64,000 bases of DNA, taken from contig JACQSY010000128.1 in NCBI GenBank assembly GCA_016211085.1, positions 1,863 to 65,862 of the forward strand, read 5' to 3'. Below the pieces are notes generated by a model that did not search any database, had not been told where the DNA came from, and was given only the letters and a program-made list of their open reading frames with translations. This DNA is from Acidobacteriota bacterium (GTDB lineage: Bacteria; Acidobacteriota; UBA6911; RPQK01; JACQSY01). The first letter of the stretch is position 1. Each line of letters begins with the position of its first letter. Made by a program: the position numbers and the translations under genes. Positions 8,508 through 32,817 of the stretch are shown in pieces.

Positions 8508-9095
8508 ATCAGGCCACGCCAACTTTCCTACATGGCTTCGCACTCAACCGAGTTCGGCGACTGGTATTTTCTTGAACAGGAGTTCGAGCAGATGTACTAT
8601 CGGAATCAAGCAGCTTTCGCCATGGTGGCGGGAGTCAACTAAAACAGTCTCCAGGAAACCCGGGGCGGTTCAATGCTCGAATGGGAAACGAAGGAGAGCG
8701 AAACACTTCTCAACGTTGGAAAACTAGCCAAGCCGTTCAGCTACGAGCTGCGGATTGCCGAAGGGCAGGAGACAAAGAAGAGAGTGGTCGAGATCCCGGA
8801 AACATTTAACTACCTGCTTGGCCTGCATGTCAAAACCCGTCGCGTTTATTACGACAAAGACAGAAGGTATGTTGTCTATCGTGGGCGTCTCGACCACCAA
8901 GAAGTCGTGATCATCTGGCGGGATACTGACGGGTGGACGAAACAGGATCTGGAGCGGGATAAGAAATTCATCTCCGATCAGGGACTTACGCAAGACGCCG
9001 AGGAAATATTTGTTAATGGCGACAGCTTCATTCCCAAGGCCAAGGCGTTGGAACCGATTTTCAAGAGCAGGATGTTCTCCACAGTGGAGGTTTAG
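8508..9095 (+). pseudogene. C-terminal fragment of a type III-like Mod methyltransferase (in-frame TAA at 8640; intact 140-codon ORF 8673-9095)
   Basis: MLEWETKESETLLNVGKLAKPFSYELRI...VVEIPETFNYLLGLHV...VVIIWRD matches, from memory, the conserved C-terminal region of large Mod-type methylases that precede Res helicases. No catalytic motifs lie upstream. The same frame is open from 8508 but is interrupted by a stop. Confidence 0.45.
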
Positions 9096-9098
9096 CAG

Positions 9099-12000
9099 AT
9101 GGCACAGGCGCGCTCAAGGACAGGAGAGTATCGGAAGTTAGAGCAACGGCTTGTTCTGCTGGCTTGGCTCAATAGTCTCTTCGGTTATGAGAGCAATCGA
9201 GACCTTTTAACAGATATGAAGGATGTCGCAGAGGGCTTCGACTCGTCCGGGCGGAGCTACATCTTCCACCAGATTGAAGCCCTGGGAGACAGAGTACGGA
9301 TTCCCCTGCAGGACCTGGCAAGGTACGACGACAATATCCGGGAGCATCTGCAAATGCTGAACGCCCGCCGGCCAGAGCCCATAACTCTCCGTTATTTCCA
9401 GTACCTGGCTGTGCTCTACTCGGAGATATTTCTGGACTGGTACTTCCAGCGACGGGCCGGGATGCTTCGGGCCCTGAACGAATTCGTGGAGAAGCGAAAC
9501 GCCGGGAAGTCGGCTAGCGAGCCGAAAGACCCGAAGTTCTCTGAACAAGAGCTAATGAAACTTGCGTTCTGGATGGCAACAGGCAGTGGCAAGACGCTCA
9601 TCATGCACATCAATTACCGTCAGTTCTTGCACTACAACGACAGGCCCTTGGACAACATCCTCTTAATTACACCAAATGAGGGCCTCACCGAGCAGCACAT
9701 GGCTGAGATGACAGATTCCAGCATTCCTTGTCAGCGTTTCGAGCTGAACGAAAGTGGTTTGGGTCTCCGCGAGGAAAATACAGTCCGCCTGATCGAAATC
9801 ACGAAGCTGGTCGAGGAGAAACGCGGCGGGGGCTTGAGCGTTCCGGTGGAAGCGTTTGAAGGCAACAACCTGATCTTCGTCGACGAAGGGCACAAGGGCT
9901 CTGGCGGGGAGGTATGGCGAAAGTTTCGCGACGCACTGGGCAGGACCGGCTTTACTTTCGAGTACAGCGCGACTTTCGGTCAGGCCCTTACCGCGGCCAG
10001 AAGGGATGAGCTTACCGCCGAGTATGGGAAGGCCATCGCTTTTGACTACTCTTACCGGTACTTCCATGGAGACGGCTACGGGAAGGATTTTCACATTCTC
10101 AATCTGAAGGAGGAGACGATAGAGGAAAAGATCGAAACGCTTCTTCTCGGAAATCTCCTGTCTTTCTATCAACAACAGCGGTGCTTTCAAGAACAGTCAG
10201 ACGATCTGAGGCCGTACCACCTGGAAAAGCCCCTATGGGTTTTCGTAGGGAGCAGCGTGAATGCCGTATACACTGAAAAGAAGCGTAAACGATCCGATGT
10301 CTTAACTGTGGCGCGTTTCCTTCACCACTTTCTTGAGAATAGGCGCGGCTGGGCTGTCAAGACTATCCAAAAGCTCATTGATGGTAAGAGCGGCCTCACC
10401 ACTCCCGACGGCGAGGACATCTTCACAGGGAAATTCGGCTACTTACAGGCAACGAAGCTGAACACTGAAAGTATCTACCGTGAGGTTCTTTCGGAAGTAT
10501 TCCATGCCGCTGCTAGCAGCGCCCTGCACATGTGCGACATACGCGGCTGCCCAGGCGAACTGGGTTTGAAGGCCAGCGGCACAGACAGTTACTTCGGACT
10601 AATCTATATCGGTGACACCAGCAGCTTTAAGAAGCTCGTGGAACAGGATGACTCCGGCATCGTCTTGGAAGACGACGCCATTTCGGATTCCTTGTTTGAG
10701 GAAATAAATAACCCGGACAGCCGTATACAACTCCTTGTCGGTGCCAAGAAGTTCATGGAGGGTTGGAACAGCTGGCGGGTCTCAAATATGGGACTTCTGA
10801 ACATCGGAAGAAAGGAAGGCTCCGAGATTATTCAGCTCTTCGGTCGGGGAGTAAGGCTGCGGGGCATGGACTTTACACTCAAGCGCAGCTCTGCAATTGA
10901 TGCGAAGCACCCCGAGCACATCCGTCTGTTGGAGACATTGAACATCTTTGCCGTTCGAGCGAATTACATGAGCCAGTTCCGGGAGTACCTGGAAAAGGAA
11001 GGTGTCGAAACAGAAGGAGCCGTCGAGCTGGCTTTAGCGATAAAGCCGAATCGGGACTTCTTGGATGGGGGCCTAATCGTGCCGAGGGTGCCGGAGGAGG
11101 AGAGCTTTGCAGCAAAGGCGCACGTCTTGTTGGAGCCAGAGCAAGAAGTAAATGTTCGCGTGGACATATCTCTTAAGATTCAGGCACTGGAAAGCGGTAC
11201 AGAGGGGATTACGGCTGTGGCTGCACGAGGCGGGCGTGAGAGGCCGATACCTCCCGAAAGCCTTCAGCTTGTCGACTGGGAAAAGATCTACCTCGATCTC
11301 TTGGAGTATAAAGAGCAAAAAGGCTTTTTTAACTTGGCTATCCGGCCGGATATTCCAAAGAAGGTTCTCTCTGCAACCGAGCCAGCTAGGCTGTATCAGC
11401 TTGTGGCGGATGAAGCCGTAACCAGGCCAACTTCCTTTGCGCAAGCCTCGCTGCTCCAAGAAGCCGTGCTTTCCATAATGCGCAAGTACGTGGACAAATT
11501 CTACCGGGTGCGCCAGGAGCGATGGGAATCCGAACATATGGACTATAAAGTCCTCGAAGACGGCGACCCGAACCTGCAAGACTATTCGGTCAAGATAGCA
11601 CGCTCAGAGGCCGCGCTTATAGGGGCAGTTCAGAAACTCATTAAGGAAGGTGCGCGGATATACAAGGAAGAGACGCGTGATCTACCCAGCATTCACTTCG
11701 ACCGTCATCTGTACCAGCCTTTGCTTGTCGAACGCGGTGACAGAGTTAAGAGCAAACCCCGCGGTCTTAACTCCGGCGAACAGCAGTTTGTCAAGGACAT
11801 GCGAGAATACTTCCGAGCCGAGAAAGACAAGTCGCTAGCCAAGAAGGAGGTATTTCTTCTTCGGAACCTAAGTCGTGGGAGAGGTATTGGTTTCTTTCAG
11901 ACAAGAGGCTTCTACCCCGATTTTATCTTGTGGATCAAGGACGCCAAGAAACAACGGATCGTTTTCGTGGAACCACACGGCATGCTGCATGCTGAGGCTT

Positions 12001-12290
12001 ACAAGCATGACGAGAAGGCAAAGCTGCACGAATCCTTGCCAAAGCTCGCCAAGGAAGTGGGCGCAAGAACCGGTCTGAAGAGTGTGATCCTTGACTCGTT
12101 CATTGTTTCGGCCACGCCTTTCGAGGCTCTTCGGAAGAAGTATGATGACGGAACGTGGGATAAGAAACGGTTCGCCGAGGCGCATATCCTCTTTCCCGAA
12201 CGGAACGGAGAATATGATTACATGGCGAGAGTATTCGAGGACGGCCGAAGCAAGATAGCGGATTACAGTGAAAGACAGGCGTTAACCTGA
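9099..12290 (+). CDS. Type III restriction Res-like SF2 helicase with C-terminal PD-(D/E)xK-like nuclease region
   Basis: Motif I is WMATGSGKT, motif II is IFVDEGHKG, motif III is YSATF and motif VI-like is IQLFGRGVRLRG. The C-terminus reads GFYPDFILW...IVFVEPHG. The N-terminus reads ...LRYFQYLAVLYSEIFLDWYF. 1063 aa. Confidence 0.8.
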   Translation: MAQARSRTGEYRKLEQRLVLLAWLNSLFGYESNRDLLTDMKDVAEGFDSSGRSYIFHQIEALGDRVRIPLQDLARYDDNIREHLQMLNARRPEPITLRYFQYLAVLYSEIFLDWYFQRRAGMLRALNEFVEKRNAGKSASEPKDPKFSEQELMKLAFWMATGSGKTLIMHINYRQFLHYNDRPLDNILLITPNEGLTEQHMAEMTDSSIPCQRFELNESGLGLREENTVRLIEITKLVEEKRGGGLSVPVEAFEGNNLIFVDEGHKGSGGEVWRKFRDALGRTGFTFEYSATFGQALTAARRDELTAEYGKAIAFDYSYRYFHGDGYGKDFHILNLKEETIEEKIETLLLGNLLSFYQQQRCFQEQSDDLRPYHLEKPLWVFVGSSVNAVYTEKKRKRSDVLTVARFLHHFLENRRGWAVKTIQKLIDGKSGLTTPDGEDIFTGKFGYLQATKLNTESIYREVLSEVFHAAASSALHMCDIRGCPGELGLKASGTDSYFGLIYIGDTSSFKKLVEQDDSGIVLEDDAISDSLFEEINNPDSRIQLLVGAKKFMEGWNSWRVSNMGLLNIGRKEGSEIIQLFGRGVRLRGMDFTLKRSSAIDAKHPEHIRLLETLNIFAVRANYMSQFREYLEKEGVETEGAVELALAIKPNRDFLDGGLIVPRVPEEESFAAKAHVLLEPEQEVNVRVDISLKIQALESGTEGITAVAARGGRERPIPPESLQLVDWEKIYLDLLEYKEQKGFFNLAIRPDIPKKVLSATEPARLYQLVADEAVTRPTSFAQASLLQEAVLSIMRKYVDKFYRVRQERWESEHMDYKVLEDGDPNLQDYSVKIARSEAALIGAVQKLIKEGARIYKEETRDLPSIHFDRHLYQPLLVERGDRVKSKPRGLNSGEQQFVKDMREYFRAEKDKSLAKKEVFLLRNLSRGRGIGFFQTRGFYPDFILWIKDAKKQRIVFVEPHGMLHAEAYKHDEKAKLHESLPKLAKEVGARTGLKSVILDSFIVSATPFEALRKKYDDGTWDKKRFAEAHILFPERNGEYDYMARVFEDGRSKIADYSERQALT

Positions 12291-12301
12291 GTTGATCTGC
12301 T

Positions 12302-15300
12302 ATGAACGTGCAGCAGAAAAGCGTAATTGAGCGGTTACGGGAGGAGATTGAAAGATCGAAGGGGTCTCACATCTGGACAGATTACGTCAACGCCTTGAAT
12401 CTAGTAGCTCAGGTTGTCTTTACTAGAAGCACAGGTTTTATTCTGGAACTGATTCAAAATGCCGAGGATTCCGGTCGGGACGATTCCGGTAAGGAGCTAT
12501 CTTATCCAGGAGTGTTTGACATCAGCATTAGCCCGACTAGGGTGAAAATTACCCACAATGGGCGTCCCTTCAGCGCAGCTGACGCTAAAGCCATCAGCGG
12601 AATTAGGTCCTCAAAGAAACCCGAAAAAGGGACGCTGGGCTATCTTGGTATTGGGTTCAAATCAATATTCAAGGTTAGCGACAGCCCGGAGGTTTACTCT
12701 AATGGTTACCAATTCAAATTCGACCGGAATTACTGGCCAGAATCCAGCGGTACACCGTGGCAAGCGATGCCAATTTGGATTGATGAGCCGTCTGAAGCGG
12801 TCGAACCAGGCGGCACAACCTTCATCATCCCTTTTACAAAACAAACTTCTGCGTCGGCTGTCCTCGAGGAAGTAAAAGAACTGGGAACGGAGCTGTATCT
12901 ATTTCTCCGATGGCTTAAGAAGATCCAAATAACTGACGAACTTTCAGGCAAAACTTGGTCCCTGGAGAACCTAGGAGAGAGTTCGGATAATATCGTCACA
13001 CTCCGGCGCGATGGTCAGCAACAGAGATTTAGATTCTTTCGCCGAACCCTAACGACCGTGCCGGATTCAGTGAAATCAGATCGATTGACCCAGGAGTACA
13101 GGCGGAACGTGACTCAGAGAGAAATCGCAATCGCCTTCGCCTTAGACGGGGAGGGCGACCTAGCCCCATCAGAGGCTGGCGCAATGTATGGCGGAGTCTA
13201 TTCGTTCTTACCACTAGGCGAAGCAAGGAGCGGGGCAAAGTTTCCGATTCAGGCCGATTTTCTCGTGCAGCCAGGACGCGATGCCATCAATTATGAGGCT
13301 CCATGGAATCACTGGCTGACCGAGGAGGTAGCCAGCCTTTGCAAGGAAGCCATACAAGCTTTCAAGGAGCATCAAAGATGGAAGTATCAGATTTTGCCTG
13401 TTTTTGAGTTCAGGAAGTCAATCGGACTGGAGTCTTACGATAGGCTTTTTGGACCAAAACTCATCGAGCCTCTAGAGAGCTTCTTAAAAGAAGATCCCTG
13501 CATACCAACCCACGACGGTCATTGGGTGAAACCTGGCCATGCGGTGCGATTGGTGGAAGATCAGCGAGCGAGTGACGACCTTGTAACACTGTGCATTCTC
13601 TCGAAAGATCAAATTGCGCAAGTTCTCGGCCGTGATTCAAATTTGAAACTGGCGCACCCAGCCGTTCAAGACAGCAAATCAATAACAATCAGAGAAGTAA
13701 AGCGACACGATTTGTTGACGAACGAAAGTTTCTTGGAGGAAATGAGCAAAGCGCCGGACGCGCCCGGCTGGTTTAGGTCAGTTTATCTTTGGCTTCAGAA
13801 GCATCCTATTTATCGCGAGTATAGACGGCGAAAAGAAGTCATTGGCTATCACGAATTCCCATTCATCCTAACGGCCAAGAAAGAACTTTTGAAGGGCGGC
13901 ACAGTGTGGATTCCCGACCTTCCACCTGCCGATCCAATACTAAATGAATTAGCCGGGTCGCTCCAGGAAACTCGCTCGGTGCTACACCCAGAGATTCTGG
14001 GAGGCGGGAATGAACAGGAACAAAGAGAACTTCGAGGTTTTCTGACGGGGTTAACGGGAGTTCAACTTTTAGATCGAAAAACAGTTTGCAGAGACGCAAT
14101 ACTGCCGAGGATTTTGACTACCGCTCCAAAGCCAGCGCGAGAGCTGCTCCTGAAGTACACTCGATATTGCCAGCAGATTCTTGGAGCCGAACTAGGCTTG
14201 GAACCAGAACTTTGGGTTCTCACGAAATCAGGAGAAGTAGAACCCGCTACACGCGTTCTATTCTCTTTCGAGTATAAGCCCGAGCAAGATTGGGAAACCA
14301 ACAAGAAGTACGTTCCAGGTCTGAGTTTTCTAAGTCCAGAATACCTTTCGACTCTAAATGATGATGCACACCTGAAAACCTGGCGTCAATTTTTTAAGGT
14401 AGGTGGCCTGAAAACCGCTCCCGATAACGGCGTCGAGGACTTTGCCATGAACTATGCGGTCGAATGTTTGAGATCACACTGCCGCTCGGTTACTAGATTA
14501 GAGAAGAGAAATTTTGGCTATGACTTGGAAGCAGAAAAGACCGATGGCCAAAAAATGTATATCGAAGTCAAAGGACAAACTCTGGACCATGATGTCGAGC
14601 TTACAGGTAATGAGACTGAGGCAGCGGATAAATACAAAGATGAATTCTATGTATTCGTGATCTCCTCGATACCCGAAAATCCTTCGCCGTATATAATTCG
14701 CAATCCCGCCGCTCCGGGGGTAGGTAAAAAGGACAAGCTCACAATTCCGACTGAGACCTGGAAGTCAGGCAGGTGGAAGTTGGATACACGATCGCGGGCG
14801 AAGATCGGGATCTTGGCTTATGGCTCCTTGATCGATTCTCCTGGGCCGGAAATCTCCCGTGTTACAGTAAATAGAATAAAAGTCGAAACGCCTTTTAATG
14901 TCGAGTTTGCTCGTTCTAGTCAGACACGCAGTGGCGCACCTACGTTAGTCCCCGTCTCGGAAGGCGGTGCAAGGGTGAACGCGTTGATCCTGGTCTTAGA
15001 CGATAAGGTGTCCGAACAAGACGCCATAAACATGTTGTGGCGTAGGGAGAGCAGTAACGTTGGCAGTTCGCTCTCCTACCGCCCACAGATAGAGCCTACG
15101 GAGAATTCGATTATTATTGAAAACCTGAAGGACTTTAATGGAATCGAGACGGTGTTGTACACGAGGATTAGTGCGAACATCAATCCAAGAACGCCGGCGC
15201 AACTCGCGCAGCTAGCAATCCGGAGTGCACAGTCCGAGGCGGGAGCAAACGGGAAGGATGGTATAACCTATTTGCTGGCCGCGAAGGGGGCCGGAATTCT

Positions 15301-15397
15301 TACGCCCTTGATGACGGAGTATGAGGCACAAATTCTGAGCCGGACGGGGGCCCAAACGCTTGAGCAAGCATTAGAGAAGATTCGGCAAAGTACCTAA
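12302..15397 (+). CDS. GHKL-type ATPase / DUF3883-like nuclease / ChaC-GGCT-like C-terminal domain fusion protein
   Basis: The Bergerat N-box is ELIQNAEDS (about 12446) and the G-box is GYLGIGFKSIF. GYDLEAE...MYIEVKG...FYVFVI (14426-14707) resembles the DUF3883 restriction-endonuclease fold. IGILAYGSLIDSPGPE...MLWRRE (14801-) resembles ChaC/gamma-glutamylcyclotransferase. Confidence 0.7.
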   Translation: MNVQQKSVIERLREEIERSKGSHIWTDYVNALNLVAQVVFTRSTGFILELIQNAEDSGRDDSGKELSYPGVFDISISPTRVKITHNGRPFSAADAKAISGIRSSKKPEKGTLGYLGIGFKSIFKVSDSPEVYSNGYQFKFDRNYWPESSGTPWQAMPIWIDEPSEAVEPGGTTFIIPFTKQTSASAVLEEVKELGTELYLFLRWLKKIQITDELSGKTWSLENLGESSDNIVTLRRDGQQQRFRFFRRTLTTVPDSVKSDRLTQEYRRNVTQREIAIAFALDGEGDLAPSEAGAMYGGVYSFLPLGEARSGAKFPIQADFLVQPGRDAINYEAPWNHWLTEEVASLCKEAIQAFKEHQRWKYQILPVFEFRKSIGLESYDRLFGPKLIEPLESFLKEDPCIPTHDGHWVKPGHAVRLVEDQRASDDLVTLCILSKDQIAQVLGRDSNLKLAHPAVQDSKSITIREVKRHDLLTNESFLEEMSKAPDAPGWFRSVYLWLQKHPIYREYRRRKEVIGYHEFPFILTAKKELLKGGTVWIPDLPPADPILNELAGSLQETRSVLHPEILGGGNEQEQRELRGFLTGLTGVQLLDRKTVCRDAILPRILTTAPKPARELLLKYTRYCQQILGAELGLEPELWVLTKSGEVEPATRVLFSFEYKPEQDWETNKKYVPGLSFLSPEYLSTLNDDAHLKTWRQFFKVGGLKTAPDNGVEDFAMNYAVECLRSHCRSVTRLEKRNFGYDLEAEKTDGQKMYIEVKGQTLDHDVELTGNETEAADKYKDEFYVFVISSIPENPSPYIIRNPAAPGVGKKDKLTIPTETWKSGRWKLDTRSRAKIGILAYGSLIDSPGPEISRVTVNRIKVETPFNVEFARSSQTRSGAPTLVPVSEGGARVNALILVLDDKVSEQDAINMLWRRESSNVGSSLSYRPQIEPTENSIIIENLKDFNGIETVLYTRISANINPRTPAQLAQLAIRSAQSEAGANGKDGITYLLAAKGAGILTPLMTEYEAQILSRTGAQTLEQALEKIRQST

Positions 15398-15415
15398 GTC
15401 TGGTCAGGAGACCCG

Positions 15416-15450
15416 CATAACCCGCAAGCCTCCTCCGTTACCGATTTAAA
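15416..15450 (+). promoter_or_regulatory. Box CATAACCCGCAAG (with tandem ACCCGCA half-repeat), then N16, then TTTAAA, ahead of the small-ORF array
   Basis: ACCCGCA-TA-ACCCGCA lies at 15411-15426 and TTTAAA at 15445-15450. The first ORF of the array starts at 15742. Confidence 0.35.
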
Positions 15451-15741
15451 CCCAGCCGCCCTCTTTTAGAAATCAGACCCGCACCCTATGCTGACCGGCG
15501 CACAGTGACGGCCATGGACGCAATACGTCAGAGAAGAAACTACAAGGTCCCCCCAAGTCGCTCCTGGCCTTCCAGGCGGAGCCAAGCAACGAACAAGTCC
15601 TGTATAAAGTCCACGCCACGGTTGACAGGTAGCGGGTGTTCCACAGCGGGCTGAGAGCCAGCGCGAACTAGAGAATATCGGCCTGCTCATGGAAGATTCG
15701 AAGAGGGGATATCCCTGACCGGCAAAGACGATGATGACCTA

Positions 15742-16107
15742 ATGAAGGAGCTCTTCGGCGATGTCATCTACGAATACACCGACGAACAGGCCGTCGCTGA
15801 CGGCGTGCTGATTCCCTTTATCGTCAACGAAAAGGATACCCATCATCGCATCACGAGTAATGCCTATCACGAGCTCACAGAGCACTATGAACAACAGGGA
15901 TACGAGTACGACGACGCACGGTATCTCGGCTTTTTCCTTCACGAACTGCTGCCCCTTGCGCCTGCGGCGGTGCGCGAATACCAGGCTGGCGGCATCCTGA
16001 AGACCGACTACGACTTCCGGGTAGTTAAGCGAGAGCAAGGAGAAATCTTGTGGTACCTGCCCAATGAAATCGGCGGGGTGACGATGATGAAGCCTGAGGA
16101 TTATTGA
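15742..16107 (+). CDS. Hypothetical protein (first gene of the small-ORF array)
   Basis: 121 aa, MKELFGDVIYEYTDEQAVADGVLIPF... It has an ATG start and is tightly followed by the next ORF. Confidence 0.55.
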   Translation: MKELFGDVIYEYTDEQAVADGVLIPFIVNEKDTHHRITSNAYHELTEHYEQQGYEYDDARYLGFFLHELLPLAPAAVREYQAGGILKTDYDFRVVKREQGEILWYLPNEIGGVTMMKPEDY

Positions 16108-16113
16108 GGTGTT

Positions 16114-16410
16114 GTGATGAGAATCGATGAGTACTCAAGGAGCGCTGGAGAATTCAGGCCAGTTGGTTGCGCTGAAGAGCTGCCCGCTTATGTGGTTTTT
16201 GATCAGGAACAAGAACCTGCTCCGGGTTACATCGCCACTGTTCTCGAGGAGATAACGACCGATGACTACTGTGCATTCCCGGAGCTTCTCCACGCGTACA
16301 GGGATTCCGACGAGGTAGGAAGATCCTTCATCAATTTCACCCTGGTGACGCTCTGCGGCTGGAGCCTTCCGAATCTGATAAGGCTCGCGCACGGAGAGAA
16401 ACCCGAATAG
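16114..16410 (+). CDS. Hypothetical acidic protein
   Basis: 98 aa, co-directional with and 6 nt after the previous gene. Confidence 0.45.
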   Translation: MMRIDEYSRSAGEFRPVGCAEELPAYVVFDQEQEPAPGYIATVLEEITTDDYCAFPELLHAYRDSDEVGRSFINFTLVTLCGWSLPNLIRLAHGEKPE

Positions 16411-16633
16411 GTGGTGGGATGAATTTCGAGAAGCTACCGGGAGAAATTCAGCCTGCTCCCGCCGACCTTGGAGGCGGCATCAGAGGGCACCCTGTGATCA
16501 ACCGCTATCTGGACAAATCCTAAATCGACTCCGTGTCCTTCTACGACTTTGTGTTGGAGAGGCTCTGGGAGGCCTACAGGCTCGCCCAGCAAAACAGGAG
16601 AGACACCGTCGAGATTATCGACCCGGAAAAGAA

Positions 16634-16852
16634 GTGATCTATGTGCCCGAGAAAAAAGACAGGATCGGCCCAGGCGGTTACGCGCCACTGACAGACTGCC
16701 CGTCCTGCGGGGGGGATGTTGACGCTTACCATCGGGATTATCCCGGAGAAGACACAATGACCCTCTACATGCGCTGCCTGTCGTGCAGCGCGGAGTACAG
16801 GGAGTACTGGGCGTTTGAAAAGTGGGAGAGAGCCGGGGAGAGGAAGAGGTGA
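16634..16852 (+). CDS. Small zinc-ribbon-like protein
   Basis: 72 aa with CPSCGG ... CLSC. Confidence 0.45.
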   Translation: MIYVPEKKDRIGPGGYAPLTDCPSCGGDVDAYHRDYPGEDTMTLYMRCLSCSAEYREYWAFEKWERAGERKR

Positions 16853-17103
16853 GCAATGTGCCAACGACTGTCAACCAGGAGAAACTGGAGGAATGGAAAC
16901 AGCGGCTCCCGCGGCGGCTGCACCTCTTCATGGAAAACTTCTACGACACGTGCGAGGTCTATGACCCGGCCGTCAGCTACCTGAATTATCTCGAGGACAT
17001 CCGGCTTTATTCCCTGACCACAGCGGCATACCGCGAGCACACCTCCGAACTGAAGAAGGCGTTCTACGACATCACAGGCTGGCAACCGGGACGTGATGAT
17101 TGA
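16849..17103 (+). CDS. Small protein, family D copy 1
   Basis: It ends ...ELKKAFYDITGWQPGRDD, and its paralog at 19979-20224 ends ...ELLKAFYDITGWQPGRDM. The GTG start overlaps the previous stop. Confidence 0.55.
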   Translation: MSNVPTTVNQEKLEEWKQRLPRRLHLFMENFYDTCEVYDPAVSYLNYLEDIRLYSLTTAAYREHTSELKKAFYDITGWQPGRDD

Positions 17104-17360
17104 TGGCAAAGGGCCAAATTGTTTCCGCACTGGACCATGGCACAATGTGGCAGCTTTTCTACGAGACAGACCAGGGAGTAGCCACCGTCTGCTTCGACCA
17201 TCGCCAGTTTGCCCACTTTTACGAGGGCGCGACTGGCGACAGCTTCTATCAGGACTACCGCTTTGGCGAAGGGCGCGGCTATGTCTCCAAGCGATTGAAG
17301 GGCTTGGCCATCAGGGTTGAGGGCGAACCTTTCAACGAGGTTGTCTACCTGGAGGACTGA
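17103..17360 (+). CDS. Hypothetical small protein
   Basis: The ATG overlaps the TGA of the previous gene (TGATG). 85 aa. Confidence 0.45.
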   Translation: MAKGQIVSALDHGTMWQLFYETDQGVATVCFDHRQFAHFYEGATGDSFYQDYRFGEGRGYVSKRLKGLAIRVEGEPFNEVVYLED

Positions 17361-18009
17361 TTGCATCGAAACCTGCGCAAGCTGCGAACGTGAATGGGAC
17401 GTACAGGCTGACTGGAGAAGCGTGGAAGCGCACCAGTCCCAGCTTCACTTTCCATTTATGGGGCGCTGCCCAGAAGCTGAGCCGAGGATGCCTGGGATCT
17501 TTGCTGAGCTTTACGACACGCCGTGGCAAGAGCAGCCGCGGACGGCGTGGTTTTGCTCCGACGCGTGTGAGGAGGCTTACACCAGCTCTGGCTCATTTGA
17601 TTACGATTGGTGCGACGGCTGTAACCGCCAGATATGCGGACAAAACCCAGGCAACGGCTGGCACGTGCAATTCCGCGAACATGAAGAGCTGGGGTACGTC
17701 TGCCTGCGCTGCTACGAAACGGAAATCCTAGAAAACGGCCAGCCGCGCTCTGACTTCGAAGGCTCAAGAATCAAAGGCGGCATGTTTTTTTCTCACGGCA
17801 ATGAGGAGCCAAAGCGAACCGGGTTTGAGGAGGTCAGTGGCTTCGATGACTACTTCGTCGCGACAACACAAGAAGCTAAAAAGTACAACTCCCACGCCCT
17901 GAGTCTCATCGACCACGGCCGCAAAGTCCTGACCGCCTACGAGAGAATGGCCATCGGTGGCCTTGAGGGCTACGTCACGATGATGGCCAAAGCCCCAGAA
18001 CAGAAGTGA
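17317..18009 (+). CDS. Cys-rich hypothetical protein (start uncertain)
   Basis: Multiple C-x2-C pairs (CASCE, CSDACEE, CDGCNRQIC, CLRCYE). The only early in-frame starts are TTG at 17317 or 17341. Confidence 0.5.
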   Translation: MRANLSTRLSTWRTDCIETCASCEREWDVQADWRSVEAHQSQLHFPFMGRCPEAEPRMPGIFAELYDTPWQEQPRTAWFCSDACEEAYTSSGSFDYDWCDGCNRQICGQNPGNGWHVQFREHEELGYVCLRCYETEILENGQPRSDFEGSRIKGGMFFSHGNEEPKRTGFEEVSGFDDYFVATTQEAKKYNSHALSLIDHGRKVLTAYERMAIGGLEGYVTMMAKAPEQK

Positions 18010-18230
18010 TATGCATGCGAACCCTGAAAGAGTACCGAGTCGTCTGGGAAATTGAGCTATACGCCTGCAGCCCAAGGGAAGCAGCGCAAAGGGCGCTGGA
18101 GACACAACGCGACCCTGATTCCACGGCAACCGGCTTTGATGTTTACCGCCTCGACGCAGGCACCGGAGTGCAATCGGCCACGGGCGAGCCCGTGCACGTT
18201 GACCTTGGGAGGTATCATCCGCTGGAGTGA
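18006..18230 (+). CDS. Small protein, family A copy 1
   Basis: MRTLKEYRVVWEIELYACSPREAAQRALE... It is near-identical at the nucleotide level to 19086- for about 120 nt. Confidence 0.6.
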   Translation: MICMRTLKEYRVVWEIELYACSPREAAQRALETQRDPDSTATGFDVYRLDAGTGVQSATGEPVHVDLGRYHPLE

Positions 18231-18484
18231 CGATCATGACCGACGACGCCAAGACATATCCGACATGCCCGGAGTGCGGGAGCGGGGAGTTCATCATTCA
18301 CGGGCTGGTCGCGTACCGCCAGGTATATATCGCCCCGCTTGATGAGTATGGCAAGAGCGCGGTTGACTGGGACACGTTTTATCCATCCGCAGCCCGCTGC
18401 CGATTGTGCGACTCCGACGCCACCGAGCTGTTCCGCCGGTATGATCACGTGCCGTTCTTGGTCAGCGTTCCGCCGCTGGAGTGA
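18227..18484 (+). CDS. Small zinc-ribbon protein, family B copy 1
   Basis: CPECGSGEF...DWD...CRLCDS. Paralogs lie at 19357 and 27543. Confidence 0.6.
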   Translation: MTIMTDDAKTYPTCPECGSGEFIIHGLVAYRQVYIAPLDEYGKSAVDWDTFYPSAARCRLCDSDATELFRRYDHVPFLVSVPPLE

Positions 18485-18518
18485 TCTGGGTGCCGACTCT
18501 GAAATTCGTGGGTGATCA

Positions 18519-18815
18519 ATGATGGAGCCCGTCAAATATATTCTCAAAATGTATCCAAGAACCGCAGCGCATCTCATGTGCGAAGGCGGTGTTGATTCGG
18601 TGAGCCCGGCAGAAGCAGCAACAGTCATAGGGCATGCAAAGTATCCTCACACAAAATATCCCCATCTCTACTATGAAGAATGGATTGCGCACCGCTACGG
18701 GGGAGACTCCATGTACGCAGTCAGTTTGTCTTTCAAAAACCGGCACTCGCACAGGGAAAAAGACTACCGGCTCGCCAGAGATTGGGTTGAGTTGGCAATT
18801 GACGGGGTGCTCTGA
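18519..18815 (+). CDS. Small protein, family C copy 1
   Basis: YPRTAAHLMCE...SPAEAA...EWI...KNRHSH...DYRLARDWVELAI. Paralogs lie at 19644 and 27198. Confidence 0.6.
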   Translation: MMEPVKYILKMYPRTAAHLMCEGGVDSVSPAEAATVIGHAKYPHTKYPHLYYEEWIAHRYGGDSMYAVSLSFKNRHSHREKDYRLARDWVELAIDGVL

Positions 18816-19079
18816 ATGCCAAAATATGACGTCCACTTGTATGCCGTCGTCAGGCTCAAAATACCGGACATTGGGGCCGAGACCCAGCAAGAGGCCATGA
18901 AGAAGGCCGACGAACTGATAGCCCCGCATCTGTACGATTTGCTGTATGCAGAAAAGCCCATCCCGATCGTGGAATGCACCGAGTACGCGGAGGAAATTGA
19001 CGGCTACCTTGTGGACGAGATCGGGGACGAGGAATACCTGAAGTCGACCTTTTACAACAAGCGGAAGGAGCCGGTCTGA
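18816..19079 (+). CDS. Hypothetical small acidic protein
   Basis: 87 aa. The ATG overlaps the previous stop (TGAATG context). Confidence 0.45.
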   Translation: MPKYDVHLYAVVRLKIPDIGAETQQEAMKKADELIAPHLYDLLYAEKPIPIVECTEYAEEIDGYLVDEIGDEEYLKSTFYNKRKEPV

Positions 19080-19085
19080 ACGGAT

Positions 19086-19331
19086 GTGACATGCATGCGA
19101 ACCCTGAAAGAGTACCGAGTCGTCTGGGAAATTGAGCTGTACGCCTGTAGCCCAAGGGAAGCAGCGCAAAGGGCGCTGGAGATACAGCGCGACGCTGATT
19201 CGATAGCAACCGTGTTTGATGTGTACCGCTTAGATGAAGATCCTAAACGGTTGTTGACCATGAATGAACCGGTGCGCGTCGACCTTCAGAGGTACAAGTC
19301 TTCCAGAAAAGCGAGGAGGACTAAGTCATGA
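19086..19331 (+). CDS. Small protein, family A copy 2
   Basis: MRTLKEYRVVWEIELYACSPREAAQRALEIQRD... It lies exactly 1080 nt downstream of copy 1. Confidence 0.6.
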   Translation: MTCMRTLKEYRVVWEIELYACSPREAAQRALEIQRDADSIATVFDVYRLDEDPKRLLTMNEPVRVDLQRYKSSRKARRTKS

Positions 19332-19356
19332 TGACGACACAGGCCGGAGGCGATTC

Positions 19357-19647
19357 ATGATGCCGGCAACCGGCAACATCAAAGGTGGCACCAAGGCGGT
19401 CTCCTGCCCGTATTGCGGCTCGGGCGATTTTGAAGTCTGGGGCGTGGTCGAGTACAGCAAGTCTTATAGCTCTGACAGCAACGAGTACGGCCCCGCCCGC
19501 CTCAACTGGGACTTTGAGTTCCCGACATACGCGGAGTGCGCTGGCTGCAAAAAGCCGGTCACGGAATACCTGCAGGAAAGCGCGGTAATCGGCGCGTGCT
19601 ATGACGTTCGCAAAAGAAAACGAAAACGGGCGCCGGGCCCGTTGTGA
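19357..19647 (+). CDS. Small zinc-ribbon protein, family B copy 2
   Basis: CPYCGSGDF...NWD...CAGCKK. I prefer the ATG at 19357 over the longer track ORF starting at 19264. Confidence 0.55.
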   Translation: MMPATGNIKGGTKAVSCPYCGSGDFEVWGVVEYSKSYSSDSNEYGPARLNWDFEFPTYAECAGCKKPVTEYLQESAVIGACYDVRKRKRKRAPGPL

Positions 19648-19979
19648 CGGAGGTGAAACATGTGGAAAATGAAATGGAATCTGTCTTGGAGATCATGAGG
19701 CGCTACCCGCGCGTCACTGCCCACGTTATCTGTCATAGCCTTGGCTATGCGACGCCCTCGTGCGCGGCAAGCATTGTTCGTGATGCGAAGTACAGACAGG
19801 AGAATTTTTGCGAATGGATTTATTCATGCTACAACCGCGACCCTCTGCCGGCAGTGCAAAGGGCAATCCGCGGGCGGCATGCGCATCACGGTTTCATGGC
19901 CGAGTACAAGCTGGCGAAGGCGCTGGTGGACAGAGCCATCAGAACGGGAGAGGAGCCCATTTTTGCGAGCTGGTTTTGA
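19644..19979 (+). CDS. Small protein, family C copy 2
   Basis: RRYPRVTAHVICH...EWI...RGRHAHH...EYKLAKALVDRAI. The exact start is uncertain (GTG at 19644 or 19662, ATG at 19674). Confidence 0.55.
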   Translation: MTEVKHVENEMESVLEIMRRYPRVTAHVICHSLGYATPSCAASIVRDAKYRQENFCEWIYSCYNRDPLPAVQRAIRGRHAHHGFMAEYKLAKALVDRAIRTGEEPIFASWF

Positions 19980-20224
19980 TGCCTACTCACGTCAACCGCG
20001 AAGAATTGGAGCGCTACAAGGCGACCTTGCCCGGGAGCCTCAATAGATTCCTGGACAGCTTCTTTCGCGAGCATGTGCATCTGGACCCAGCAACCGCCTA
20101 TCTCCGTTATCTGGGCGACGTGAAATTCCACCAAATATTCCATCGCGAGTACCGCGAGCACGGGCCTGAATTGCTGAAGGCCTTCTACGACATCACGGGC
20201 TGGCAGCCGGGGAGGGATATGTGA
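19979..20224 (+). CDS. Small protein, family D copy 2
   Basis: The ATG overlaps the stop of the previous gene (TGATG). The C-terminus is ...FYDITGWQPGRDM. Confidence 0.55.
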   Translation: MPTHVNREELERYKATLPGSLNRFLDSFFREHVHLDPATAYLRYLGDVKFHQIFHREYREHGPELLKAFYDITGWQPGRDM

Positions 20225-20460
20225 TGCCGGCGCCCGAAAACGAGGGGCACTGCACAGGCTTTTTCGTCTCGGACGAGGACATCAAGCACGTCTACGCCGC
20301 CAACAAGGAACTCCATGCCTACAGCCCGCGGGAGCTTGCCCGTGGAATCCACACTCTGAAATTCATGGGCATCATGCCCGAGTACATCGTCACGAGGCAG
20401 AGCGTGTTCTACTCGTACTTCGAGAAGGAGGGGAGGAAGGAGGTCTGCGTGATTTCCTGA
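20221..20460 (+). CDS. Hypothetical small protein (last gene of the array)
   Basis: 79 aa. The GTGATG start overlaps the previous stop. Confidence 0.45.
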   Translation: MMPAPENEGHCTGFFVSDEDIKHVYAANKELHAYSPRELARGIHTLKFMGIMPEYIVTRQSVFYSYFEKEGRKEVCVIS

Positions 20461-20484
20461 AACACAGGGACGAACCGTCAAACT

Positions 20485-20880
20485 TCAGCCATCCCGCGTC
20501 TCATCGTCCTCAACAAGCCGTTCGAGCTCGTGCAGCTTCCTCCGGAGGTTCAGCAGGTCCTCGTCCAGGTCAGTGAGGAATTTCTTGGCCGCCACGTCTC
20601 TCCGTTTCAGCAGCCGCCTTATCCTGCTCCGCAGCTCGTCCTTTCCAGAGGAAGGGGGCTCGTCCGGAAAGTTCAGCAGCTCGGAAAGCGTGATGTGGAA
20701 GGCTTCGGCGAGTTTTGCCAGGTTCTCCAGGGACACGTTCCTCTCGCCCCTCTCAATCCCTCCGACATAGGTGGGGTGCATGCCAGCCTCCTCACCCAGC
20801 TTTTCCTGCGACCACCCGAGGCTGTTCCGCAAGTAGCGGACGCGCTCGCCCAGCCTGTCCCGTATCCCAGTCGTCTGCAT
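20485..20880 (-). CDS. XRE-family helix-turn-helix transcriptional regulator
   Basis: LGERVRYLRNSLGWSQEKLGEEAGMHPTYVGGIERGERNVSLENLAKLAEAF is a classic HTH_3 pattern. I prefer the ATG at 20880 over the TTG at 20910. The gene is convergent with the small-ORF array. Confidence 0.85.
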   Translation of the reverse strand: MQTTGIRDRLGERVRYLRNSLGWSQEKLGEEAGMHPTYVGGIERGERNVSLENLAKLAEAFHITLSELLNFPDEPPSSGKDELRSRIRRLLKRRDVAAKKFLTDLDEDLLNLRRKLHELERLVEDDETRDG

Positions 20881-21021
20881 GATTGAAACCAGCCCTCCCC
20901 TTTTAAGCAAGGCAGAGGCGGCTTGCTACAGACGATGAGAACTATTTATTGATATAAATACTATGAGTATTATACACTGCCACCCCCGGGATCGGCCTCC
21001 GGTTAAGCCAAGGAGGAGAAG

Positions 21022-25353: not shown

Positions 25354-25839
25354 ATGCCGCCGCGTTCCTCAGCCGTTCGTTCAAGTTGCTTCGCCAACGG
25401 CTCGTATCACGGCTATGAGGTCCGGCTTCGCGTGGAGCGCGTGGGCAACGGGTACGAGCCGTACCAGGTCAGGAACAGCCGCGACATCTACGACTTCATG
25501 CAGCCGCTGGCTGACGAGAGCAGCGAGTTCATGTACAGCTTGAATTTCGACGGCAAGAACCGCGTCACCGGCGTCTACCTGGTCGGCAAGGGCAGCTGCA
25601 CCTGCTGCATGGTCGATCCCAAGGAGGTCTTCAAGTCCGTGCTTGTCGCAAACAGCCCGGCCTTTGCCCTGGCCCACAATCACCCGTCCGGAATTGTGGA
25701 GCCGAGCCAGGAGGACCTTTCCATGATGACGCGTGTCAGTGACGGCGCCCGGCTGCTCGGCCTGACCTTCCTGGATTTCCTTATTGTCGGCTATGAGTCC
25801 TACCTGTCCGCGCTGGACCAGGGGTTGCTGAGAAGGTAA
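25354..25839 (+). CDS. radC: RadC-like JAB/MPN domain protein
   Basis: FALAHNHPSGIVEPSQEDLSMMTRV...GLTFLDFLIVG is a JAMM motif (H-x-H-P-S-G ... S/E-x2-D). Confidence 0.85.
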   Translation: MPPRSSAVRSSCFANGSYHGYEVRLRVERVGNGYEPYQVRNSRDIYDFMQPLADESSEFMYSLNFDGKNRVTGVYLVGKGSCTCCMVDPKEVFKSVLVANSPAFALAHNHPSGIVEPSQEDLSMMTRVSDGARLLGLTFLDFLIVGYESYLSALDQGLLRR

Positions 25840-25868: not shown

Positions 25869-25907
25869 CTTACCCGCAAGCTCTGCAAATCGCCGCACTC
25901 CTTTAAG
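25869..25907 (+). promoter_or_regulatory. Box CTTACCCGCAAG, then N21, then TTTAAG, 27 nt upstream of the orc1/cdc6-like copy 3 ATG
   Basis: The box is at 25869-25880, TTTAAG at 25902-25907 and the ATG at 25934. Confidence 0.45.
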
Positions 25908-25933
25908 TGAGAACATCACGAATCAATTACAGG

Positions 25934-26968
25934 ATGAGCGCGGATAAAATCATCGTGAAGCCCGAGATTCTTTCTGAAGGCTTTGTGCCGGAAACGATTC
26001 ACGGGAGAAGCGAGCATCTGGCGCAGCTGAGAAACTGCCTGGCTCCGGCCCTCAAGGGAAGAAAGCCTCTACACGCCCTTCTGACCGGGCCGACAGGGTC
26101 AGGCAAGACCGCTGTCGGTAAAGCGGCATTGAGCATGCTCAGGGAAAGCAAGGTCCCGATCGCGTTCGTGAACTGCCGCCTGAACAACAGCTTCTACGCG
26201 ATTCTCGACCAGGTGGTCGCGCAACTCGGAATCCTTCGGGCAGAGAAAATCGACACCGGATTCAAAATCAAAGCTGTGGAGGAGTACCTGGAAGGAAGGC
26301 CCGCGGTCATCGTGCTCAACGAGATCGACACCCTCACGCCAAAGGAGCGGAACAGCGTGCTCTACAATCTAACGGGCATCGGCAATATCGGCCTGGTGTG
26401 CATTTGCGAGGACGCGCACTTTCTCCACTCCCTGGAAGAGGAGGCAAAGTCGAGGCTCTACCCAACCCACATCGAGTTTCAGCCATACGAGCACCAGGAC
26501 ATGGCGCAAATAATCCGGGACAGATGCACGGCAGCCCTGGCCGAAGGAGCAGTTGAGCAAAAGCACATCGATTTCATAGCCGCGCAGTCAGAAGGCAATA
26601 TTCGCATTGCATTGGAGATTCTGCGGAAGGCGGCTTCCTTTGCGGAGCAGGACGGGAAACAAAGGCTCAGCGTAAAGCACCTCAAGCTGGCTTCGCTCGC
26701 GGCAAACGGGAGCAAGCGCGACTATTTGCTCAGTCAGAACGAGCATTACCGGATAATTTACGAGATCGTCCAAAAAAACAGCCCTGAGGGCATCATGTCC
26801 GGCCACCTCTGGAAAGCGTACACTGATTTTTGTTACCAGGAGAGCAAGCAGCCTGTCGCCAACCGAACGTTTTTGCTCTACCTGAAAAAACTTCAGTATC
26901 TCTCCCTGGTCATGGCAGAGCGGGCGGGCATCCGTGGGAATGTGAGGAGGTGGAGGGTGAGGGAGTAG
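25934..26968 (+). CDS. Orc1/Cdc6-like AAA+ ATPase with C-terminal winged helix, copy 3 (Walker B Asp replaced by Asn)
   Basis: FVPETIHGRSEHLAQLRNCL, Walker A GPTGSGKTA, Walker B AVIVLNEID, tail RTFLLYLKKLQYLSLV...GNVRRW. It is closest to copy 2. Confidence 0.85.
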   Translation: MSADKIIVKPEILSEGFVPETIHGRSEHLAQLRNCLAPALKGRKPLHALLTGPTGSGKTAVGKAALSMLRESKVPIAFVNCRLNNSFYAILDQVVAQLGILRAEKIDTGFKIKAVEEYLEGRPAVIVLNEIDTLTPKERNSVLYNLTGIGNIGLVCICEDAHFLHSLEEEAKSRLYPTHIEFQPYEHQDMAQIIRDRCTAALAEGAVEQKHIDFIAAQSEGNIRIALEILRKAASFAEQDGKQRLSVKHLKLASLAANGSKRDYLLSQNEHYRIIYEIVQKNSPEGIMSGHLWKAYTDFCYQESKQPVANRTFLLYLKKLQYLSLVMAERAGIRGNVRRWRVRE

Positions 26969-27031
26969 CCACATATTTTGGGGCCTGCGGTTTTAAAAAG
27001 TTTCGGCAGGAGGACTGGTTTGACTGGTGCA

Positions 27032-27197
27032 AGTGGATTTAACAGCTGCTACAACTGCGACCCGCCGCCAGCGGTTCAGGCAGCGATCCGCGGGAGGCAT
27101 TCGCACTGCGGTTTTATGGCAGATTATAGGATTGCCAGCGTTGGTTGACCGGGCAATCGAGACTGGGGAAGGAGCCGCTGCTTGCGAGTTGGTTTTG
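27032..27197 (+). pseudogene. 5'-truncated, frameshifted remnant of a family C small gene
   Basis: It aligns at the nucleotide level with 19813-19979 (CYNCDPPPAVQAAIRGRHSHCGFMADY vs CYNRDPLPAVQRAIRGRHAHHGFMAEY). Indels occur near 27130 and 27185. The second one removes the stop, which produces the chimeric track ORF 27027-27476. Confidence 0.6.
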
Positions 27198-27476
27198 ATG
27201 TGGTTCGAGGATGAGTTTCTCCGTCGATATCCATGTCTCGCCGCCCACCTGATGTGCGAGCGGGATGTGTACCAGCTCAGTCCCGCGGAAGCAGCCCTGG
27301 TTCTCAGAGATGCGAGGCACGGCTACCACTGCGAGCACGAATGGATTGAATACAAATACGAGGGCGATGCGATTGCCGCTGTCCGCGTGGCCATTCGCAA
27401 CCGGCACTGCCACAAAAAGGAAGATTACAGCACAGCAAAGACGCTGATCGACTTGGCGCTTGAAGGGGCGTTGTGA
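27198..27476 (+). CDS. Small protein, family C copy 3
   Basis: MWFEDEFLRRYPCLAAHLMCE...SPAEAA...EWI...RNRHCH...DYSTAKTLIDLAL. Confidence 0.55.
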   Translation: MWFEDEFLRRYPCLAAHLMCERDVYQLSPAEAALVLRDARHGYHCEHEWIEYKYEGDAIAAVRVAIRNRHCHKKEDYSTAKTLIDLALEGAL

Positions 27477-27542
27477 AGGGATCACATTTGGCGCCCATTG
27501 ACCAAAAAGGCGCGGCATTAACATCTGAGGAAGCTGTTCATC

Positions 27543-32802: not shown

Positions 32803-32817
32803 TGCCCGCCTCCTTTG

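Follow-up and report, generated by a model that had tools for sequence, protein, structure and literature searches.

Accessory operons of mobile elements are the source of most new anti-defence and host-takeover proteins, and to our knowledge nearly all such examples come from cultured Proteobacteria and Firmicutes. Enterobacterial islands of the CP4 type hold clusters of YfjQ/DUF932, YfjX/ArdB-like, YfjY/RadC and CbeA/CbtA genes, and the RadC-linked small-gene clusters of CP4-57, CP4-6 and CP4-44 include toxin–antitoxin (TA) pairs; apart from the anti-restriction-like and TA members, the function of these clusters is mostly undescribed. The leading or establishment regions of conjugative plasmids and of integrative and conjugative elements are dense arrays of small genes on one strand, many of undescribed function (PMC11541004; pLS20 establishment genes, PMC8708921), and in plasmids these same-strand arrays are enriched in anti-defence genes (PMC11541004). 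Early-establishment proteins of conjugative elements carry RadC and ArdC-N as signature domains (PMC5512222), and polyvalent-protein systems have been proposed to act in the early establishment of invading DNA (Iyer et al. 2017, PMC5512222). Here we describe an operon of 16 small genes at positions 15742-20460 (+ strand) of a 64,000-nucleotide stretch of Acidobacteriota DNA, hereafter the window, whose 94,996-bp source contig belongs to an NCBI metagenome-assembled genome (MAG) from groundwater. The feature is of an already known kind, and its protein families are new. It is part of a flexible pool of accessory genes that integrative elements and some phages of uncultured soil, sediment and groundwater bacteria share. 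Judging from its neighbours and its pattern of occurrence, there is roughly an even chance that it helps the element to establish itself in new hosts, including by counter-restriction in the case of some members.

The locus resembles each of these systems in part. As in CP4-type islands, an integrase-bounded element holds small same-strand genes around RadC/DUF932, with paralogous copies per genome; the sequences, however, show no similarity, ArdB/KlcA, DUF987 and CbtA/CbeA were not found in Pfam and NCBIfam scans, and the present element relies on a serine recombinase and on Cdc6-like ATPases. With leading regions (PMC11541004) the array shares uniform orientation and dense packing, 16 of its 16 genes lying on the + strand, and its relatives are associated with ArdC-N, methylases and a relaxase and coupling protein. 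Unlike those regions, it contains no recognised ArdA, ArdB, ArdC, KlcA, PsiB, SSB or Acr in Pfam, PHROGs and NCBIfam searches (ArdC-N occurs in relatives only), and tblastn with three of its products, g06, g01 and C2, gave no match in 72,556 PLSDB plasmids; leading-region membership cannot be claimed. Polyvalent-protein systems keep similar company (RadC, ArdC-N, methylases, SNF2/ResIII helicases and zinc ribbons nearby) and have a proposed role like the one proposed here, but the genes in the array are separate and small rather than one giant polypeptide, and none matched an LPD/polyvalent Pfam model.

A translationally coupled operon on a mobile island

The array and the gene that closes it are made up as follows.

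15742..16107, + strand: g01, 121 amino acids, acidic (isoelectric point (pI) 4.6); conserved family without a Pfam match
16114..16410, + strand: g02, 98-amino-acid acidic orphan; GC content at third codon positions (GC3) 0.60
16419..16637, + strand: g02b, 72 codons; the sixteenth gene, its stop overlapping the GTG start of g03
16634..16852, + strand: g03, 72-amino-acid zinc ribbon, CPSCGG...CLSC
16858..17103, + strand: D1, 81 amino acids, C-terminal end FYDITGWQPGRDD; longest open reading frame (ORF) from 16822
17100..17360, + strand: g05, 86 amino acids; conserved family, non-synonymous to synonymous rate ratio (dN/dS) ~0.1
17341..18009, + strand: g06, ~222 amino acids; Cys-rich, multi-CxxC N-terminal part and alpha/beta C-terminal domain
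18006..18230, + strand: A1, 74 amino acids; 76% identical to A2
18227..18484, + strand: B1, 85-amino-acid zinc ribbon, CPxCGS...CxxC, B1-type
18519..18815, + strand: C1, 98 amino acids, C1-type, lacking the EEPxFASWF tail; closest to C3
18816..19079, + strand: g10, 87-amino-acid acidic orphan; GC3 0.75, gene call present in the NCBI record
19086..19331, + strand: A2, 81 amino acids, basic tail
19357..19647, + strand: B2, 96-amino-acid zinc ribbon, B2-type (C.GCKK..T.YL, basic tail)
19644..19979, + strand: C2, 101-111 amino acids, highly conserved and helical, with a helix-turn-helix (HTH)-like segment and an RxRHxH motif
19979..20224, + strand: D2, 81 amino acids; 51% identical to D1
20221..20460, + strand: g15, 79 amino acids; dN/dS 0.69
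20485..20910, − strand: XRE-family HTH regulator, convergent, closing the array

The initial annotation of this DNA had counted at least 15 genes; the ORF listing of the window returned all 15 on the + strand with the coordinates it gave, and ORF 16419-16637 raises the number to 16. Neighbouring genes mostly overlap: 9 of the 15 junctions do so by 1-44 nucleotides, six of these nine through a 4-nucleotide GTGA or TTGA, and the remaining gaps span 0-34 nucleotides. Each ORF has a GC3 between 0.56 and 0.85, and all 16 proteins are predicted to be soluble, with no hydrophobic segments and, for 11 of them, a pI of 5.3 or below. The genes are translationally coupled, and the region is best explained as one polycistronic operon encoding 16 small cytoplasmic proteins. 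By its MPTTVN N terminus, which resembles the MPTHVN of D2, D1 probably starts at GTG 16858 and has 81 residues; homolog N termini place the start of g06 probably at TTG 17341, its longest ORF running from 17317.

The added gene, g02b, fills what appeared to be a 223-nucleotide gap between g02 and g03 and carries an in-frame TAA at 16521-16523 in the window. We compared it with groundwater DNA sequencing runs that hold the window sequence (X1 to X4). Position 16522 is C in X1 (depth 18, all contigs) and in X3, which turns the stop into TCA (Ser). Because both runs read TCA and not TAA, g02b is intact in the source groundwater population.

The array is part of an integrated mobile island with defence cargo, the left end of which lies outside the window. 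A recombinase stands at a boundary with housekeeping genes, next to gene content of the mobile kind. That the array is a mobile-element accessory cluster, as the initial annotation had supposed, is borne out by this serine recombinase edge and by the way the families travel with RadC, ArdC-N, methylases, integrases and a relaxase/coupling pair in other elements. The convergent XRE gene that it had placed at the end of the array was likewise recovered (HTH_3, 62.9 bits against a cut-off of 23; expect value (E) 2.9e-17). This gene is bracketed almost exactly by a 22-nucleotide imperfect inverted repeat (20499-20520 / 20919-20940, 82% complementary).

A scan for promoters and terminators gave no signal above shuffled expectation, a tRNA scan found none, and Rfam had no match over the whole window. 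At the upstream end, an imperfect palindrome at 15406-15434 directly follows the stop of the preceding gene, tmtA; its 12-pair stem forms only with G-T pairs and on the minus strand. The 9-mer AGACCCGCA, our guess at a 'box at 15416' that had been named as the upstream bracket, occurs at 15409-15417 and 15475-15483, 66 nucleotides apart. The window contains it three times, a count equalled in 2 of 100 shuffles, so it is not significant. A loose end at 21344 in three runs, considered as a possible element boundary, was not reproduced with a shorter stretch and was dropped.

The families form a shared accessory gene pool

We collected 124 related loci: 105 anchored on g06, from MAGs, metagenomes and IMG/VR, and 19 added later, anchored on C2 and g01. 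With tblastn and iterated hidden Markov model (HMM) searches, eight families (g01, g05, g06, A, B, C, D and g15) were found to co-recur in many of these loci, among them L002, L006, L009, L010, L021, L025 and L029. The initial annotation had proposed to compare related islands for cassette copy number; the eight families recur there with shuffled order and varying copy number. The order is g06-g01-B-D-A-...-g15-ArdC-N in L006, g06-B-methylase-g05'-g01-B-D-g15-A-g05-C in L025/L026, g06-g01-B-g05-C in L009, B-g06-B2-g05-C in L021 and g06-C-B2 in L029. Across loci the adjacencies g06-g01, g01-B, B-D, D-g15 and g05-C are kept. Orthologs of g05 occur in 10 loci (56-62% identity), frequently directly upstream of C2, and those of g15 in 9 loci (34-48% identity), mostly after D or B; L006 and L025 hold orthologs of D1 (dN/dS 0.18-0.30) and of A1, the latter as the N-terminal domain of longer proteins.

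Small overlapping genes with some kept neighbours (g05-C, g01-B, D-g15) could also stabilise the island as TA pairs, addiction pairs or modules of abortive infection, comparable to CbtA/CbeA after RadC in the CP4-type islands of E. coli. RadC-linked small-gene clusters of enterobacterial islands do contain TA pairs, and the decayed copies of B and C described below resemble TA turnover. The kept adjacencies are not the obligate two-gene adjacency of TA modules, however: the window has g06 after g05 and B2 before C2, and elsewhere C2 stands alone beside RadC/DUF932. Moreover, Pfam, NCBIfam and PADLOC-style models gave no TA family match, and the Foldseek matches of g01 to ParE/HigB are at noise level (E > 3). 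We therefore regard this explanation as improbable.

The company kept by the families is that of mobile elements. When Pfam domains were counted in 150 genes adjoining g06 homologs, ArdC-N, HTH_3, DNA_pol_A, RadC, N6_N4_Mtase, UDG and AAA_22 headed the tally, and DUF932, Ku, Prim-Pol, integrase, resolvase and BrxL turned up singly. In L106/L107 a tyrosine integrase is followed by small ORFs, RadC, a 73-amino-acid ORF, C2, further small ORFs and a Type I restriction–modification (R-M) system. In L108/L109 a Cdc6-like ATPase immediately precedes C2, with RadC and a methylase close by. L110/L111 run from a TrwB-like and a Replic_Relax gene, ~5 kb from C2, through two integrases, a g01-like gene, DUF932 and C2 to methylase/ResIII and KAP NTPase genes. 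Other window genes with homologs in the related loci are the methylases (12 loci), RadC (6 loci, and 5 among those added later), the Cdc6-like ATPases (4 loci, and 2 added later) and the staphylococcal nuclease (1 locus). In IMG/VR, g06 homologs occur in phage genomes with terminase and major head genes, where they lie inside replication modules with a DnaB-like helicase, primase, polymerase and dNMP kinase.

The neighbourhoods of relatives also hold BREX, Type I/III R-M and GmrSD cargo, and in the window the array lies immediately downstream of, and on the same strand as, a Type III R-M system (6798-12290) and TmtA (12302-15397). This arrangement would fit small proteins that serve these neighbouring defence systems as accessory subunits or regulators. 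However, no homolog of Res or TmtA was found in any related locus carrying the small-gene families, and the type of defence cargo varies by element while the small families stay constant, which makes a subunit role very unlikely.

The DNA at 15400-20950 matched neither PLSDB plasmids nor INPHARED phages, and tblastn of g06 gave no match in 50,697 phage records. Because g06 is absent from plasmid and phage records, and g01 and C2 from plasmids, the families appear to be restricted to lineages without cultured members, namely Acidobacteria, Binatia and Desulfobacteraceae, with a small number of archaeal MAG contigs. One contig, Ga0315277_10000665 (53.7 kb; L006/L030), carries two distant g06 paralogs ~26 kb apart, together with BREX, an ArdC-N protein and a Mu-type transposase/IstB pair.

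Ancient paralogs are maintained by purifying selection

The paralog families A to D of the initial annotation stand far beyond chance in an all-against-all blastp of 15 array translations, which returned nothing else notable. Identities are 76% for A1/A2 (E 7e-35), 51% for D1/D2 (E 5e-29), 40% over 55 amino acids for B1/B2 (E 2e-15) and 34% over 95 amino acids for C1/C2 (E 3e-14). Only two DNA repeats stand out: 17998-18159 against 19078-19239, 162 nucleotides at 89% identity and a spacing of 1080 nucleotides, and 17029-17105 against 20150-20226, at 78%. A nucleotide identity of ~93% claimed for the 5' part of A applies to the most similar part of A only. Likewise, of a proposed A-B-C(-D-E) cassette, A-B-C is indeed duplicated in order; '-D-E' is not part of the repeat, because D1 sits upstream of A1 with g05 and g06 between them.

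Iterated HMM searches of all window ORFs uncovered further paralogs beyond the range in which these families had been described. They form a second, decayed mini-array (26978-27786) that directly follows the third of three Cdc6-like genes in the window.

25354-25839, + strand: RadC, which with its Cdc6-like neighbour is the usual company of family C elsewhere
25907-26968, + strand: third Cdc6/Orc-like AAA+ ATPase, directly before the C2-type remnant
26978..27190, + strand: C2-type remnant, C-terminal half, frame-shifted
27198..27476, + strand: C3, 92 amino acids, intact C1-type paralog; 46% identical to C1
27543..27786, + strand: B3, B1-type pseudogene with a frameshift near 27685 (no indel variant in metagenome reads)

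Non-synonymous change (pN) was far below synonymous change (pS) in 20 of 20 paralog and ortholog comparisons by the Nei-Gojobori method. Where dS is unsaturated, dN/dS is 0.1-0.36, g15 standing higher at the value given above. Synonymous sites are saturated for B1/B2, C1/C2 and C1/C3, and nearly so for D1/D2. The B1-, B2-, C1- and C2-type subfamilies each have their own orthologs in other elements; B2-type orthologs with the C.GCKK..T.YL signature, for example, occur in L021 and L029. The paralogs within the window are ancient subfamilies kept side by side and not recent duplicates. The description of the array as fast-evolving, through repeated duplication and diversification, fails on the same grounds: saturated synonymous sites, low pN against pS and subfamily-specific orthologs. 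The first ~50 codons of A1/A2 differ from this pattern, with a dS of 0.29 against ~1.9 for the remainder and identity beginning 8 nucleotides before both starts. This looks like the signature of the sole recent event, either gene conversion or a partial recent copy.

The array genes are real, conserved and under purifying selection, which the initial annotation had named as a check on whether they are coding at all. Could some or all of the ORFs nevertheless be non-functional, either spurious or decaying duplicates? Homologs of g02, g02b, g03 and g10 are lacking in the 124 related loci, the window copy of g02b has a nonsense variant and its other population variants are all non-synonymous (4/4), and B3 and the C2 remnant have decayed. 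Set against this are purifying selection in every family tested, the tight packing with start/stop overlaps, high GC3 throughout and the hundreds of homologs of g06 and C. Even in the orphan g02, the population variants in an X4 contig are synonymous in 6 of 6 cases. The reading of some or all ORFs as non-functional is extremely improbable. The decayed copies (B3, the C2 remnant and the g02b nonsense allele) indicate birth-and-death turnover of array genes.

Two low-depth contigs show other arrangements. In X3 a contig joins 19148 back to 18069, which would reflect either one more tandem copy of the 1080-bp A1-B1-C1-g10 unit or a chimeric assembly at a 34-nucleotide exact repeat; we do not rely on it. 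In X1 a contig connects D2 with an A gene (20214 to 18033) through 19 bases of foreign sequence, and D followed by A is also the order in L006. Together these joints suggest related element variants in the same aquifer.

The array encodes previously undescribed protein families

The families are previously undescribed: they have no Pfam or NCBIfam model, we found no paper on them, and no solved or similar structure exists. The initial annotation had reported no motif that it could assign, and this holds: Pfam, PHROGs and NCBIfam (the last run on ten array proteins) gave nothing at threshold, and sub-threshold zinc-ribbon noise only. Sequence-profile searches of the PDB with g06, g01 and C yielded nothing significant, and hhalign among all array families detected no cross-family homology, a D-B probability of 48% being probably an artefact of ORF extensions. 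A check for known homologs by structure also came back empty, the AlphaFold models of g01 and g06 being confident and without a PDB fold match. The locus supplies eight or more families that are conserved, under selection and without annotation, all of them from uncultured lineages of groundwater and soil and all next to Type III R-M and Tiamat cargo. Two of them (g01 and g06) have confident predicted folds lacking a PDB counterpart.

No family is larger or more widespread than g06, with 60 homologs initially and 395 representatives at 50% identity (E <= 1e-3) in an exhaustive search. Its alignment has 15 invariant columns; several CxxC pairs and an NGW motif do not vary, and its AlphaFold model reaches a pLDDT of 85.7 (core >90) and a pTM of 0.78. 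Against BFVD, g06 gave marginal full-length matches to uncharacterised Bacillus phage and mycobacteriophage proteins (E 1.6e-3 and 8.5e-3, TM 0.35-0.43). Fusions in long homologs involve only DUF3768, DUF7447 and DUF7576 and are uninformative; we found no mention of DUF3768 in the literature.

The g01 family has 27 homologs at 50-79% identity, with invariant D/D/DT.HR/N/W residues and a model pLDDT of 93; distant copies lie on 10 viral contigs. Its N-terminal ~30-58 amino acids weakly resemble the segment after motif III of HsdR/SWI2-SNF2 restriction helicases, LFG.VIY.YTD.QA..DGVLIPF in g01 corresponding to a helicase-side pattern FG.PIY.YS..Q.I.DGFL.P. The segment matched Pfam SWI2_SNF2 (PF18766, profile positions 164-213 of 221, E 0.004), the NCBIfam EcoAI R subunit (NF046051, positions 324-379 of 768, E 6e-4), a dnd restriction enzyme model (E 0.03) and the HsdR structure 3h1t (residues 347-378, E 0.8), four matches that represent one motif and not independent confirmations. 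We rejected the idea that g01 is itself a superfamily 2 restriction helicase: only residues ~2-61 align, to one segment, and no full motif I-VI core is present. The HsdR resemblance may serve as a lead.

Among the zinc ribbons, g03 recalls Lar (PF14354) of the Rac prophage, being a ~70-amino-acid CPxCG...CxxC ribbon on a mobile element whose best Pfam and PHROG match is Lar. Unlike a true Lar, it stays below threshold (19.2 bits against a cut-off of 28.6 for Lar_restr_allev; PHROG Lar-like, E 0.023), and such ribbons are generic, B members matching other ribbon models equally weakly; g03 was accordingly not assigned to the Lar family, the Pfam gathering threshold not being reached. It aligns with B on both zinc knuckles and takes the B slot in the g01-B-D order, and is probably a divergent B-type member by these features, at an hhalign g03-B probability of only 12%.

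Helices make up the C proteins, which show an HTH-like stretch (IAESLGYATPS.AA.IL.DA in C2) and keep the pattern E-W...Y...R.RH.H invariant. C2 has more than 251 homologs, with 62-88% identity across more than 100 listed proteins and 43 invariant columns in a 15-sequence sample of the C2-type; its neighbours elsewhere are RadC, a Cdc6-like ATPase and DUF932. Homologs of the window's Cdc6-like ATPases lie directly upstream of a C2 gene in L040, L108 and L109.

This conservation and placement raise the possibility that the array supplies accessories for replication, regulation or partition, in which C would be a small DNA-binding partner or regulator, of HTH type, of the Cdc6/Orc-like initiator ATPase, the ribbons factors of the Ogr/Delta or TFIIS kind, and the XRE protein a repressor. 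The succession of a Cdc6-like gene and C2 is kept in L108, L109 and the window itself (third Cdc6-like gene, C2 remnant, C3), g06 homologs in phages have helicase, primase and polymerase genes around them, g03 matches the Ogr_Delta and TFIIS ribbons weakly, and a convergent XRE gene closes the array. However, C1 and C2 within the array adjoin no Cdc6-like gene, the free variation in order and copy number is unusual for core replication genes, and no HTH or replication family reached threshold. The ArdC-N, DUF932 and orphan-like methylase neighbours also favour establishment or counter-restriction. We regard a replication or regulatory function as the main alternative, possible and somewhat doubtful. 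If C does work with the Cdc6-like ATPase, it would throw light on the use of Orc/Cdc6-type initiators by bacterial integrative elements.

A candidate role in establishment

We propose a role in establishment because relatives neighbour ArdC-N, RadC, DUF932 and orphan-like methylases (PMC5512222; PMC11541004), because presence, absence and order follow an accessory pattern among elements, because divergent paralog subtypes are kept together, and because g03 and g01 give two sub-threshold hints of anti-restriction. In such a scheme, the operon would be expressed upon entry or induction of the element, and its products would bind DNA-processing and defence proteins of the host or element, or DNA, so that the element establishes. 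Candidate binders are the zinc ribbons B, g03 and g06, the acidic proteins g01, g02 and g10, and the HTH-like C. Counter-restriction would be the likeliest single activity for some members, and the divergent pairs B1/B2, C1/C2 and D1/D2 may be specificity variants that cover different targets. Counter-restriction by some members, if true, would add new folds to the anti-defence catalogue and widen it to further phyla.

Several observations weigh against this role. In Pfam, PHROGs and NCBIfam no array family reached threshold against any annotated family, whether of anti-defence, of anti-restriction or of another kind; the similarities of g01 to HsdR and of g03 to Lar lie below cut-off, and hhalign of g01 against the Res of the window gave a probability of 0.1%. 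Foldseek against the PDB returned a best E of 0.8 for g06 and 2.3 for g01. The conservation of C2 greatly exceeds that usual for proteins in an arms race, and its conserved place behind a Cdc6-like ATPase suggests that it does housekeeping for the element. A single-stranded DNA promoter is not apparent either, the 344-nucleotide upstream spacer showing no excess structure in a search for a Frpo-like hairpin (-46.2 kcal/mol, z = +0.91 against shuffles). Among 40 larger window ORFs there is no Pfam match to a relaxase, type IV secretion system or coupling protein, no oriT was seen, and several ORFs at 35.7-42.5 kb have no match at all. The sequencing runs that match the window are DNA only, with no RNA run. 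Finally, the company that genes keep does not distinguish counter-defence from a part in replication or regulation. Taking both sides together, the anti-defence or establishment reading offered by the initial annotation is plausible on the sequence evidence.

A more far-reaching version, which we think unlikely, would make the array a toolbox of structurally novel counter-defence proteins, with g01 a decoy that copies the segment FG.PIY.Y...AI.DG.L.P of HsdR/Res-type restriction helicases and poisons their assembly or translocation, and with B and g03 as Lar-like alleviators of restriction. These genes would then mark, along with C, RadC and the Cdc6-like ATPases, an undescribed element family, widespread in Acidobacteriota-type uncultured bacteria and sharing genes with phages.

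Genetic context in the window

The remaining annotated genes of the island, and its probable right edge, are as follows.

778-1806 and 2230-3258: first and second Cdc6/Orc1-like AAA+ ATPases, left of the array
3651-5063: N4/N6 (beta-class) methylase, left of the array
6798-8441: Type III R-M Mod, an N4/N6 methylase and paralog of the 3651-5063 gene
8673-9095: separate 140-amino-acid Type III Mod C-terminal piece
9099-12290: Type III Res (PADLOC REase_III, E 3e-156)
12302-15397: Tiamat-type TmtA (E 1e-98), with a GHKL/sacsin-like N terminus and NOV_C
42670-44565: large serine recombinase (Resolvase, Recombinase and Zn_ribbon_recom), followed by hemE, hemH and other housekeeping genes

The three paralogous Cdc6/Orc1-like ATPases, including that at 25907-26968, have AAA_16/AAA_22, Cdc6_lid and Cdc6_C domains and may be the replication initiators of the element. 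The two methylase paralogs share a 149-nucleotide repeat (4818-4966 against 8256-8404, 79% identity), and in other elements their relatives lie within the arrays of small genes, as at 11151-12896 of L025. The defence block (6798-15397) sits directly upstream of the array; an exact-protein look-up for its TmtA returned no record.

To the right of the array lie, in order, the XRE gene, two secreted or outer-membrane-like genes, an AlkB-like oxygenase, RadC and the third Cdc6-like ATPase. Beyond B3 follow a PAPS-reductase-like gene and a staphylococcal-nuclease homolog (27882-29576), a gene pair common on plasmids and phages. The former matches phrog_424 (E 3e-51) over the C-terminal 250 profile positions only, and the latter has a signal- or transmembrane-like N terminus. 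The region from the serine recombinase to hemE and hemH (42670-47353) is the probable right island boundary. Between these landmarks, a block on the minus strand (29960-35463) includes an ABC-type ATPase at 32818-34110 (−) with matches to MADS mad3 and mad8 (E 2e-20 and 2e-12); the block, otherwise unannotated, may be another defence system.

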